From a virus: a DNA stretch of 30,012 nt. How positions within the stretch are numbered: the first letter of the stretch is position 1; every line of letters begins with the position of its first letter. Location: the UHGV virus genome UHGV-0120925; one strand, written 5' to 3'. Shown one piece after another: positions 21,910 through 29,957 of this stretch. Position numbers and translations under genes: made by a program. The notes under the pieces were generated by a model. It was not told the DNA's origin. It did not search any database and was given only the letters and a program-made list of their open reading frames with translations.

Positions 21910-22443
21910 AATCGAAAACTCCTATTAATCATCGGCTGTGGGACCCCAAAAAAAGTTTTCTAACCTGCGGCGATGTGAAGAAAGGCTAGGCGGCGGTCCT
22001 TTTGGCGCCCGGTTACAGGGATTTGACCTCCCCCTCCCCTCCACATCCGTTGATGGTAATCATTATCATTTGAAGCGTTCACGCCCTGTTTTCGAGCGGT
22101 GGCAAGGCCAGCACAGGCTTTCAAGGTTCGAATCATCATCGGTACACGTAAACGTGCTGTATCACCGGGTGCGATCCGGTCGGTGAGAGAGTATCCCCGC
22201 GCGAGAGCGAGAACGGCGTGAGAACGGGCAACACTGGCAGGGAGTTGGCGCTGACCAATACAGGGAATGTTATGGGATGTGGTGAAGGGTTCATGGACGG
22301 GAATATGTCGCACGTAAAGCGGCGAGGCCCGAGGAGCTATTGCCGAAGATAAGTAGGCCGAATCGGGTCGAAATGGGTCTCCCACCTACCACAGCACCAA
22401 AGCATTTCTCCCGCATCAGCGGGTAACTAAGTGGAGAGTAAGT
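21910..22443. promoter_or_regulatory. Non-coding divergent control region between the late (minus) and early-left (plus) operons; likely holds promoters and the packaging site
   Basis: About 530 bp with no RBS-supported ORF. GC-rich, with short direct repeats (GAGAACGG twice at 22207..22226). Exact promoter and cos/pac positions cannot be fixed from sequence alone. Confidence 0.4.
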
Positions 22444-22632
22444 ATGCACAAGTGTCAATTCTGTGGGTACTTTCTGGCATCTGAAGAGATGCAGAGAATA
22501 TCTGTAAACATGGTTGGCAGGCCTTACAACATCTGCATTCCATGCTCAGAAAAGTACAAAAAGAAAGGCCTGTGGGATTCGGCAAAAAACGATATCGACT
22601 GGAAAGCACTTCCATGCGTCGATGAGACATAA
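22444..22632 (+). CDS. Small zinc-ribbon protein (CxxC...CxxC), unknown function
   Basis: RBS GGAGAG. 62 aa with Cys pairs at residues 4/7 and 31/34. First gene of the plus-strand early operon. Confidence 0.6.
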   Translation: MHKCQFCGYFLASEEMQRISVNMVGRPYNICIPCSEKYKKKGLWDSAKNDIDWKALPCVDET

Positions 22633-22665
22633 CCGCATCAGCGGGTAACGACAGAGGGTAAGGGG

Positions 22666-22962
22666 ATGATCGACGACATCAAGCGCATCGACTCAATGAT
22701 AAATGCGCTTCGCAATATGAAACAGGACATCAAGCGTCAGCAGAAACTAAGTGAAATAAACAGTTTAGACCTGTCGCCGAAGCAAGCTCAAAAGCGCAAT
22801 GCCGATGCTGACTGGATTGCGATGGAACAGATTAAGCGTCGGCATGAGCTGCACGCTCTGTCTGTTGAGCTTGGGTTCGCTGAGCGCCGGGAAAGTTATG
22901 CTCCATTTGAATTAACTGACGGGTGGCACCGATTCGACCACAAGCCGCGCGAACCTCAATAG
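22666..22962 (+). CDS. Hypothetical protein (98 aa)
   Basis: RBS AAGGGG. Preceded at fixed spacing by the repeated 17-nt motif. Terminator follows. Confidence 0.55.
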   Translation: MIDDIKRIDSMINALRNMKQDIKRQQKLSEINSLDLSPKQAQKRNADADWIAMEQIKRRHELHALSVELGFAERRESYAPFELTDGWHRFDHKPREPQ

Positions 22963-22984
22963 CCGCCTAACCAGCGGCTTTTTC
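22961..22984 (+). terminator. Rho-independent terminator within the early operon
   Basis: AGCCGC-CTAACCA-GCGGCT followed by TTTTT, overlapping the stop codon of the 98-aa ORF. Confidence 0.55.
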
Positions 22985-23118
22985 ATACCTGGAGTCATTT
23001 ACGAGTGGCTCAAGTTATGACAACCGGCGGCCATCCACCGCCCATTGAAACACTGAATAAATGCGTTGAAGTCTTGTATTAACCGTTCCGTTCGCCGCGA
23101 TAAGGCCAAGAGGAAATC

Positions 23119-23890: not shown

Positions 23891-24030
23891 GCGAAAGCCC
23901 ACCGAAGTGGGCCCGCCATGTCCGGCCTCACCGACCAAAGTTACACCGGAAACAACATTAAAACCAAAGTTAACCCAATGGGCGCTATCAATGGTCCGGG
24001 GATTCTAACACCCAAAAATGAGGATCTCAC

Positions 24031-28383: not shown

Positions 28384-28581
28384 ATGGATGATATTTTGGT
28401 AACGTCAGACCTGACCAGTCGCTACAAAATTTCACGCAAAACCCTTTGGTCATGGCAAAGTGCAGACACAATGCCTCGGGGCTTCGTATGCCCGTTCCCA
28501 CCCCCTGACTGGCCCGGCAACCCTAACCGCTGGCGCTCTGAGTCAATCAAAGAGTGGGAGGATAAAAAGAAGATAAATTAA
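28384..28581 (+). CDS. xis: Excisionase / AlpA-like DNA-binding protein
   Basis: Start at ATG 28384 with RBS GGAGAG; the track ORF from 28339 begins with TTG. Pattern ...[12 protein letters not shown]...PRGFVCPFP... fits the AlpA/Xis winged-helix family. Converges on the int 3' end. Confidence 0.6.
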
Positions 28582-29771
28582 CTGAAGGGCTCTCCGATGA
28601 TCTCTTCAAGATGGCTCTGCCAAACGCGGAGCCAGTGTTTCTGATCATCGATATAGTCATGAAGGTTGTAATGCGCCATAACCCCCACCATCTGATGCCC
28701 GAGCAGCTTTTCAATTACGTGCGGCGGGCAACCTAACTCAGAGAGATTTGTGGCTATCGTCCGCCTCATATCATGAAGCGACCACTCTGCCATACCTGTT
28801 CCATTCCAAATAGAACGGGCGTAATTGGATGCCACAGGTGAATGAACGGGCGAATCTTTGATCCCGCCATCAATTTTACGTTGTGAAGTCACCAGGTGAT
28901 TGGTGTTTATTTTCTTGAGGTGATTTCTGACCAGGTTAACGGCGGCGTCTGAGAGTCCCCTTCTAATATGTACCCGAGTTTTATAACTGCCCGCAGGCAC
29001 GACCCACTCATTATCATCCAATCGAAACCATGATCTCTCACTAAGTCGAATCTCAGCCGTACGGCATCCGGTAAGCATAATAAATTTCACCAGGAAAACG
29101 GACTCTATCGACATATGGCTTTTCAACCACTGATAGATTTTGCGCAGATCGTCATCGTCCATCCTGCGAGTTCTCTTTTTAGGCTTTTGCCCGACATCAG
29201 ATGGCAGTAATCCCTCGAGTGGGTTTGAGGCGATCACACTTCTGTTAACGCAGAACCTAAACGCCCGTTTGCACAGCGAAAGCATGTAATGAGCCATCAC
29301 CCTGCTTTCTATAGAATCGAAGACGTTGATCCAGTGCATTTTCGCTGTGTTATCGACTTTGACATTCTTCATCGGTTCGGCGATATGTTTCTCAAACACC
29401 TGGCGATAGTAATCGACTTTAACTAGCCCGTTAGCGATACAGTGCCTTTCAATCCAGTAATTGAACGCTTCGGCAACGGACATCGCTTCCTGTCGGGTCT
29501 GCTTATCCAGCTTCACCTGCTCTCGCGGATCCAGTCCCTCAGTTAACCAGTTTCTGAATTGTTGGCGACGCTCTCTTGCCTGGGTGATACTCATTGCAGG
29601 ATAATCACCAACATTGAGTTTTACCGCTTTACCGGCCCAGCGATACCGATAGAAAAATGATATTTTTCCGGCCTGGCTGATTCTGGCGTTGAGCCCGTGC
29701 GAATCAGAAATAATCTCGATATCATCTCTTTTCTTGCCGAGCGCCTTCCTGAGCTTTGTGTCGGTGATCAT
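28578..29771 (-). CDS. int: Tyrosine site-specific integrase
   Basis: C-terminal catalytic region with R...HDMRRT...H...Y residues ([30 protein letters not shown]). Start set at ATG 29771 ([10 protein letters not shown]), typical of P4-type integrase N-termini; upstream in-frame codons run through the GTACACA repeats and are probably untranslated. Confidence 0.88.
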
Positions 29772-29776
29772 TGAAT

Positions 29777-29817
29777 GGGTACACATTTTTGTTTTTGGGT
29801 ACACAAAAGTGTACACA
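29777..29817. repeat. Three direct repeats of G(G/T)GTACACA just upstream of the integrase start; candidate arm-type or operator sites
   Basis: GGGTACACA at 29777..29785 and 29797..29805, GTGTACACA at 29809..29817 (contains the palindrome GTGTACAC). A single GTACACA also sits in the left-end hairpin loop at 136..142. Confidence 0.4.
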
Positions 29818-29957
29818 AAGTTGCCCACTCAAAGCTACACGCAATGTAACACTAGTTCGCAGAGTGTTATGGTTTACATCCTTGAAAGCCTGCTGGATAA
29901 GGGTTTAGCGTAACAGAACGTTTTTACGCGGAATTGTTCGTAATATGCCAAATGACA

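Follow-up and report, generated by a model that had tools for sequence, protein, structure and literature searches.

The 17-nt sequence CCGCATCAGCGGGTAAC, which occurs twice in the 30,012-nt stretch of the virus genome UHGV-0120925 analysed here (hereafter the window), is the invariant core of a non-coding module that ends the early-left (pL) leader of lambdoid phages of the phi80, HK639 and HK225 type. The explanation that we favour, and consider probable, is that this module is a portable 5' untranslated region with its ribosome-binding site (RBS), which doubles as a homology patch for the exchange of gene cassettes, and that the window carries two copies of the core as the outcome of a cassette insertion. 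The element appears to be undescribed in the literature that we searched, which included work on the phi80 and HK639 leaders and on RNase III in the N-leader. It is best filed with the conserved regulatory or linker modules that lie at the borders of phage gene cassettes.

The two copies are located at 22411-22427 and 22633-22649 on the plus strand, as are all other features given below unless stated otherwise. Each ends 16 nt before an ATG, at 22444 for the open reading frame ORF1 (62 aa) and at 22666 for ORF2 (98 aa), exactly as the first-pass annotation of the window had described. A third site was not found in the window, even when three mismatches were allowed; the number of matches expected by chance is 0.02, and none of 100 shuffled sequences contained two or more. 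Between 22100 and 23100 the 17-mer is the sole perfect direct repeat of 12 nt or longer, with a copy spacing of 222 nt, and one further repeat family, 80% identical, is present there. Identity between the copies is confined to the 17 nt, since the base before the motif is C in copy 1 and A in copy 2, and the base after it is T and G, respectively. The short dyad noted in the motif was confirmed as a hairpin, which in copy 1 has 5 bp (C22410-C22414 with G22419-G22423, CCCGC/AUCA/GCGGG, -8.9 kcal/mol) and is followed by UAAC. In copy 2, which begins immediately past the ORF1 stop codon, it has only 4 bp (-6.6 kcal/mol) because the preceding base is an A. The two 16-nt spacers are unlike in sequence and have in common a shifted GAG(A/G)GTAAG core. 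The spacer specific to ORF1 (22428-22443) has its Shine-Dalgarno (SD) sequence GGAG at 22433-22436, and the canonical spacer GACAGAGGGTAAGGGG (22650-22665) has GAGGG at 22654-22658.

An exact-match scan of IMG/VR yielded at least 120 matches, in which the flanks AAAGCATTTCTC and GACAGAGGGTAAGG are kept and divergence is complete right after the ATG. The conserved island exceeds the 17 nt and comprises (C)CAAAGCATTTCTC, the motif and GACAGAGGGTAAGGnnATG. We located a block of about 45 nt, CCAAAGCATTTCTC-motif-GACAGAGGGTAAGGnnATG, in over 130 loci of lambdoid phages or prophages, which come from several genera of enterobacteria. Its layout is CCAAAGCAUUUCUC / CCGCAUCAGCGGGUAAC / GACAGAGGGUAAGGnnAUG, which correspond in this order to the 3' strand of a long leader helix, the 5-bp GC hairpin with its AUCA loop and UAAC, and the SD sequence. 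A genome scan in which the 14 hairpin bases were left free recovered 11 enterobacterial species (Citrobacter, Enterobacter, Scandinavium, Kosakonia, Trabulsiella), 10 with the canonical hairpin and one with a G to A change. The first-pass annotation had staked its reading on the motif being conserved in homologous regions, and these scans show that it is. Among the occurrences with a nearby start codon, 95 of 113 have the 16-nt spacing. The IMG/VR matches nearly always have one motif per locus, and where there are two, a gene lies between them. In the annotated phages phi80, HK639, HK225, CobraSix and KO-TP1, the element is placed between pL/nutL or a putL-like region and kil, gam and recT, the order being pL, nutL or putL-like RNA, leader, motif, variable ORF, terminator and kil/gam/recT. 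For comparison at the level of loci we used 141 lambdoid phage or prophage loci (numbered L), with a total length of 1.35 Mb and about 7 kb on each side of the motif.

The block forms the left edge of a slot, mostly of one gene, between the pL leader and the first terminator. The proteins encoded in this slot belong to 45 unrelated families among 82 distinct sequences, and many of them are small and acidic. Only three families are matched in Pfam; 25 are matched in PHROG, by as many different entries, none of known function. The N gene of phi80 follows the motif in just 8 of 129 occurrences. The equivalent position is that of nun in HK022 and of N in lambda. On its right the slot is closed in 93 of 103 loci by the intrinsic terminator tL1, 193-993 nt past the motif, and then by a small covarying hairpin and the conserved block ATGACAACCGGCGGCCATCCACCGCC, which in the window is located at 23017-23042. 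This right-border block, present in more than 120 loci, starts a small ORF (MTTGGHPPP..., 23017-23082 in the window) and may be either a peptide gene or a signal in RNA or DNA. Anchoring on the right block gave a sample unbiased for the motif; its 139 loci include 75 with the exact motif, 13 with close variants and 44 slotless loci of a different architecture. The latter 44 have the right block without motif or slot, near operator-like repeats.

In the right-block-anchored loci the nucleotide diversity (pi) of the 17-mer is 0.016, in comparison to 0.37-0.43 for kil at all three codon positions. The diversity of the motif is about 25-fold below that of this neighbouring gene, so it is probably under constraint. 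The motif is also retained where protein-coding genes, either a gene of the HK225_041 type or an HNH/AP2-like ORF, replace the leader. In L019 (1178-1720) and L044 (954-1496, both in oriented coordinates), an HNH/AP2-like ORF of 180 aa ends a few nucleotides before the motif in place of the structured leader; judged by eye from its sequence, it is likely a homing endonuclease. L044 has a second full unit of leader, motif, gene and terminator farther downstream.

These observations bear on the possibility that the motif has no function and is a recombination scar, or a hitch-hiking junction kept by cassette exchange at the site. Its position is what such a scar would predict, exactly at mosaic break points, with the ORF1 insertion bounded by it and the homology of Stx phages ending just before it. 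The low diversity holds across several genera, however, the motif is kept before the RBS in all kinds of rearranged context, and a neutral 17-mer shorter than the pairing threshold of recombinases would decay. Retention of the motif upon replacement of the leader, together with its low diversity, thus disfavours a neutral scar, which we regard as improbable. As to the Stx/Oslovirus phages themselves, they share the phi80 leader at about 96% identity (L127, the Stx-type phage PA2, 1950-2270); the homology ends at AAAGCATTTC, just ahead of the hairpin, and other sequence follows, so that the break point falls within the conserved module. Their phi80-type leader is preceded by a boxA, TGCTCTTTAACAA, which is identical to the boxA of the rrn operons.

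The origin of the two copies in the window became clear from comparison with phi80. This phage has a single motif, 16 nt ahead of N, whose upstream flank is that of copy 1 and whose downstream flank is that of copy 2. Relative to phi80, the window differs here by a 222-bp insert whose limits coincide exactly with the 17-bp repeat and which comprises a 16-nt spacer, ORF1 and a single motif copy. HK225, L097 and L111 also have this motif-ORF1-motif cassette; with the window counted, three different leaders precede it and four different genes follow it, and each of the three upstream contexts is also known as a single-motif allele without ORF1. The two copies are therefore one ancestral site doubled by insertion of the ORF1 cassette and not separately evolved control sites. 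The first-pass annotation had taken identical sequence at identical spacing as a sign of a recognition site. Because a single site was duplicated by the ORF1 insertion, this likeness does not constitute independent evidence, and the spacers themselves differ.

ORF1 (22444-22632), the inserted gene, encodes a 62-aa CxxC...CxxC protein (zinc ribbon) that matches phrog_19863 from end to end and whose homologues are 68-97% identical. A small zinc-ribbon protein had been suggested as the partner of the motif. As no more than 4 of the approximately 130 loci with the motif have this gene, its product cannot be the general ligand, and we discarded this candidate on its distribution. Its remoter homologues (68-69% identity) in L146, L147 and L148 are found directly after lambda-type N genes (PF25694) and before the terminator, without the motif. 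As they follow lambda-type N in these loci, the ORF1 family is, by gene order, habitually tied to the N position across different lambdoid lineages. In the window the start codons of ORF1 and N, 222 nt apart, share a frame, and the 33 nt between the two genes contain no in-frame stop besides that of ORF1 itself. Read-through of this stop would yield an ORF1-N fusion, although the arrangement is probably coincidental.

Folding of 111 leaders with RNAfold and covariation analysis identified a long helix in front of the motif. In the window its 5' strand is GGAATGTTATGG + GATGTGGT (22264-22283) and its 3' strand ACCACAGC-A-CCAAAGCATTTC (22388-22408), the last 12 nt of which are the conserved stretch that abuts motif copy 1. 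In general the 5' strand is GGAAUGUUUUGG with 6-9 more bases, and the 3' strand is the 12 nt preceding the motif. All of these 12 nt are paired in 70 of the 111 leaders, and the motif hairpin is present in the minimum-energy fold of 101. In an alignment of 29 sequences from which the inner domain had been removed, the helix was 92% paired, as against approximately 45% in slid controls. Eight pairs are changed on both sides, amounting to 41 cells versus 13 in shuffles, and none of 500 shuffles scored as high. The long leader helix is supported by this covariation. It comprises 21 bp with a bulge of 1-2 nt and ends 1 nt ahead of the hairpin, which places the motif outside it, and its length is in the range of RNase III sites (about 20 bp or more).

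The helix encloses a domain of 60-178 nt, for which we counted 18 unrelated families in 93 leaders; the window has the phi80-type version of this hypervariable structured RNA (22284-22387). The inner domain looks like a hypervariable RNA slot adjoining the protein slot. One of its families is a 47-nt copy of positions 237-283 of bacterial 16S ribosomal RNA (Rfam 32-37 bits, E about 1e-7). Others have GGUUCGAWUCC sequences resembling the T-arm of transfer RNA (tRNA) and NCCA ends, with ARAGORN calling tRNAs in six loci, including HK639. In several leader classes the helix resembles the extended acceptor stem of a tRNA-like domain. A search of Rfam with leader plus motif at E values up to 10 gave no family, the 16S fragment in one leader class being the sole match.

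On the reading that we favour, a portable leader and RBS module at a recombination joint, the hairpin RNA would travel with the RBS and give each occupant of the slot one and the same 5' and initiation context. It probably acts as a boundary that, after folding or processing, sets the structured and probably processed leader apart from the RBS. It may also serve as a 5'-terminal protective stabiliser once the adjoining helix, long enough for RNase III, has been cleaved. Small and stable hairpins a few nucleotides upstream of the RBS at a likely processed 5' end are known from 5' stabilisers of E. coli mRNAs, the ompA 5' stem-loop among them, and from the RNase III-site hairpins of T7. On this established knowledge, the motif hairpin is comparable in being small, stable, close upstream of the RBS and at a putative processed end.

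At the DNA level, the variable gene is flanked by invariant stretches of 29-31 nt, a length sufficient for recombinases of the RecT/Red type to exchange cassettes or bring in new ones. For Red-beta, the shortest segment that pairs efficiently measures 23-27 bp, and RecT-dependent exchange in phi80 has been shown experimentally (PMC3945230). The 29-31-nt arms exceed this segment, and recE and recT are present just downstream in the window. A cassette flanked by 'CCAAAGCATTTCTC+motif' and 'motif+GACAGAGGGTAAGG' would have arms that overlap in the 17-mer, and because of this overlap its insertion would create the exact 17-nt duplication seen. In the window, the 62-aa zinc-ribbon gene with its own RBS would in this way have been placed between the hairpin and the RBS of N, with duplication of exactly 17 nt.

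Several observations weigh against this reading. The 17 nt alone are below the minimal pairing segment, so the recombination route that we infer depends on the 29-31-nt arms. The element may be silent in the window prophage, since pL and boxA are gone from it. Compensatory changes in the hairpin were not found in the 29-sequence alignment, and since all five pairs are invariant there, covariation is uninformative on the hairpin. The rare hairpin variants are single-sided (CACGC, CCUGC, CCCAC...GCGGU and GCGGA), and a few cassettes have the RBS block only or half of the motif. Predicted RBS accessibility was 0.51 for the wild type versus 0.46-0.51 for mutants. Finally, the invariant loop and UAAC fit sequence-specific recognition better than they fit a purely structural role.

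The variation of the hairpin was surveyed further in four IMG/VR scans that excluded bases by IUPAC (International Union of Pure and Applied Chemistry) codes and in the genome scan with the hairpin left free, and all of these returned single-sided variants only. The scans barring the canonical base at each position of the 5' arm gave four loci and zero compensatory changes. Variants in the right-block-anchored sample had the loops AUCU and AUCG, GCGGA in the 3' arm, or a 2-nt deletion that still folds (CCCG/UCAG/CGGG), the last of which is found at the head of cassettes stacked behind terminators. The hairpin overlaps neither the SD sequence, which follows its end by 4-9 nt, nor the AUG, which follows it by 20 nt. 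Breaking its 3' arm or deleting it altogether reduced the predicted RBS accessibility to 0.46-0.48, and breaking the 5' arm had no effect; in-silico support for an insulating role is therefore weak. An anti-SD switch, in which UUUCU would pair with the SD sequence if the long helix is absent, is unsupported (0.51 versus 0.47 and 0.55, not significant). In the 4 kb to either side, no conserved complementary 8-mer, as would be expected of a long-range partner, kept a consistent position.

It has been proposed, in essence by the first-pass annotation, that the hairpin and UAAC form a sequence-specific operator, at which a conserved trans-acting factor (a host RNA-binding protein or RNase, or a phage protein) controls translation or processing of the slot gene. 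The stem, loop and unpaired UAAC are near-invariant across genera between two hypervariable flanks, at a fixed distance from the start codon, in a single copy and a single position per phage, all of which would be expected of such a site. Against this, we found no candidate ligand, the slot proteins are mutually unrelated, the region matches no Rfam family, the hairpin is clear of SD and AUG, and some cassettes lack it. A site controlling translation or processing is plausible as far as its conservation, spacing and low diversity go, but the want of compensatory change in the hairpin and the tiny predicted effect on the RBS do not bear it out. We therefore consider this operator unlikely, while giving it more credit than any other alternative discussed here. 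The motif does not conform to translational operators of the MS2 coat, T4 RegA or Mu Com type, given that the hairpin overlaps neither SD nor AUG and the zinc-ribbon ORF is so rare among the loci.

It is also conceivable, though rather less likely than the operator, that the hairpin and UAAC are a sequence-specific recognition element, for instance a decoy for Cas6e of type I-E CRISPR systems or a site for another host factor. It would then be the fixed joint of an immediate-early counter-defence module that combines, under one leader, two adjoining hypervariable slots, one for RNA (tRNA-like, 16S-like and other domains in the conserved helix) and one for small proteins (at least 45 families).

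A text search with the motif string led to the type I-E CRISPR array of E. coli K-12. This raised the more specific possibility that the hairpin mimics a type I-E repeat, either by titrating Cas6e in the manner of a partial solitary repeat unit or an RNA anti-CRISPR, or by being cut by Cas6e, and that its expression follows infection at once, alongside that of a variable counter-defence protein. The K-12 I-E terminal repeat GTGTTCCCCGCATCAGCGGGGATAAACCG has the same 14-nt core, CCCGCATCAGCGGG, as the motif, and the canonical repeat core differs in two loop bases only. The motif is solitary, intergenic and outside an array, as solitary repeats are, it is early, its hosts are Enterobacteriaceae, and the many small, acidic slot proteins would suit such a role. 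RNA anti-CRISPRs beside acr genes have been documented (PMC10651486). Over the full repeat, however, identity to the K-12 terminal variant is limited to 20 of 29 positions, and identity to the canonical repeat to 18 of 29. In addition, the stem is shorter by 1 bp, the 5'-handle AUAAACCG is absent and similarity in the flanks is at the level of chance (6 of 15). SRUFinder requires 90% or more identity along 90% or more of a known repeat, which the motif does not reach, and the motif was not found in the text supplementary lists of the same study (PMC10651486). Moreover, stems of the form CCCGC-N4-GCGGG, combined with at least 10 other loops, commonly serve as terminators in these loci, and none of the slot proteins matches a family of known anti-CRISPR function. 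Mimicry of a CRISPR repeat is hence very unlikely, more so than a functionless scar or a recognition element in general. Set beside the solitary repeat units and RNA anti-CRISPRs (Racr) of Camara-Wilpert et al. 2023 (PMC10651486), the motif is alike in being solitary, intergenic and phage-encoded, with a hairpin core identical to a type I-E repeat variant. It is unlike them in that only this core matches, the stem being shorter, the handles missing and the similarity below published detection thresholds.

The location of a small hairpin in the pL leader just ahead of N would be in keeping with a nut-site boxB to which the N protein of phi80 would bind. The motif of phi80 (L002, 2769) lies about 310 nt past boxA (2450-2458) and about 265 nt past the annotated nutL core, however, and a second copy resembling nutR was not found at up to three mismatches in the 141 loci, which cover about 7 kb on each side; phi80 has no annotated nutR. 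The motif stays invariant while the slot protein varies, and HK639, a phage that relies on a put-like antiterminator RNA, has it too. It also has a tetraloop and not a GNRA-like pentaloop, and it does not stand beside boxA. We rejected the boxB/nut reading on position, on the missing partner site and on independence from the type of N; of all the explanations weighed here it is the least credible. A terminator or promoter was likewise rejected. Neither consensus is present at the motif, whose hairpin is followed by UAAC and not by a U run, and the only same-strand terminator called is at 22961-22979.

Among known systems, by analogy, the module is most like the promoter-early stem-loop (PeSL) regulatory cassettes, which are mobile in T4-type phages (Arbiol et al. 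2010, PMC2839356). Each is an expression signal, non-coding, short and conserved, that has a stem-loop and flanks small ORFans in hypervariable regions, and in both, insertions or deletions between related phages are bounded by repeats, as seen here in the 222-bp difference from phi80 and in filled and empty alleles in three contexts. Recombination between copies shuffles genes in the T4-type phages and may do so here. Unlike PeSL, the motif has no sigma-70 promoter or terminator; its hairpin and RBS are within a leader, and it usually occurs once per genome, bordering a single slot, in temperate lambdoid phages. The N-leader of lambda, with nutL, an RNase III stem and the N RBS, is also comparable, being located between pL/nutL and the first gene before tL1, with a long helix preceding the RBS. 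The two differ in that they share no sequence similarity, the helix here holds a hypervariable RNA domain, and a separate invariant hairpin is present between helix and SD. In addition, the gene after the motif is usually not N, and RNase III cleavage is putative here.

The window itself is a lambdoid prophage, whose minus strand encodes tail, head and terminase functions as far as 21909; these genes are followed on the plus strand by ORF1, ORF2, Kil (23119), RecE (24031) and RecT (26943); an integrase is encoded at 28578-29828 on the minus strand. ORF2 (22666-22962), the occupant of the variable slot in this phage, encodes a 98-aa phi80-type N protein and is the N gene of phage phi80, with 99.6% DNA identity to M11919 and JX871397. 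Both ORF1 and ORF2 are genuine genes. The phi80 map reads pL, putative nutL boxA, 'nutL core', about 290 nt of leader, N and the terminator tL1A. In the window, homology to the phi80 pL leader starts with the hairpin CACGTAAACGTG (22143-22156), labelled 'nutL core; putative' in phi80, and tL1A (AGCCGCCTAACCAGCGGCT with a T run) is at 22961-22984.

The prophage lacks pL, boxA and the immunity (cI, cro), replication, Q and lysis regions, and is defective. The stretch 21910-22145 is a deletion junction, as homology to phi80 and to the intact prophage of E. coli G3/10, located at about 2.865 Mb of NZ_CP060075, sets in at 22143, within the putative nutL core. Between terS and this point lie 235 nt of terS-proximal packaging-module sequence of other phages, and the junction was found in no complete E. 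coli genome of the collection examined. Elsewhere in the window, an Rfam match to the Hfq-binding small RNA isrB (38.2 bits, gathering score 35) is present at 23892-23989 on the minus strand, antisense between a 95-aa ORF and recE.

The invariant block of about 45 nt, a hairpin plus RBS, provides a searchable landmark for a hypervariable immediate-early slot in a large group of enterobacterial temperate phages. This slot is the sole gene position transcribed from pL ahead of the first terminator; it is taken by N in phi80 and is the positional counterpart of lambda N. The dozens of small slot proteins of unassigned role are natural candidates for host takeover or anti-defence, and the landmark gives a simple way to collect their genes. 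The module also represents a natural "plug-and-play" expression context, relevant to how phages keep an RBS working before arbitrary genes, and the window offers a concrete example of a cassette gained between the copies of a short repeat. Should the hairpin be a specific recognition site, it would constitute a new post-transcriptional control point of lambdoid early expression.

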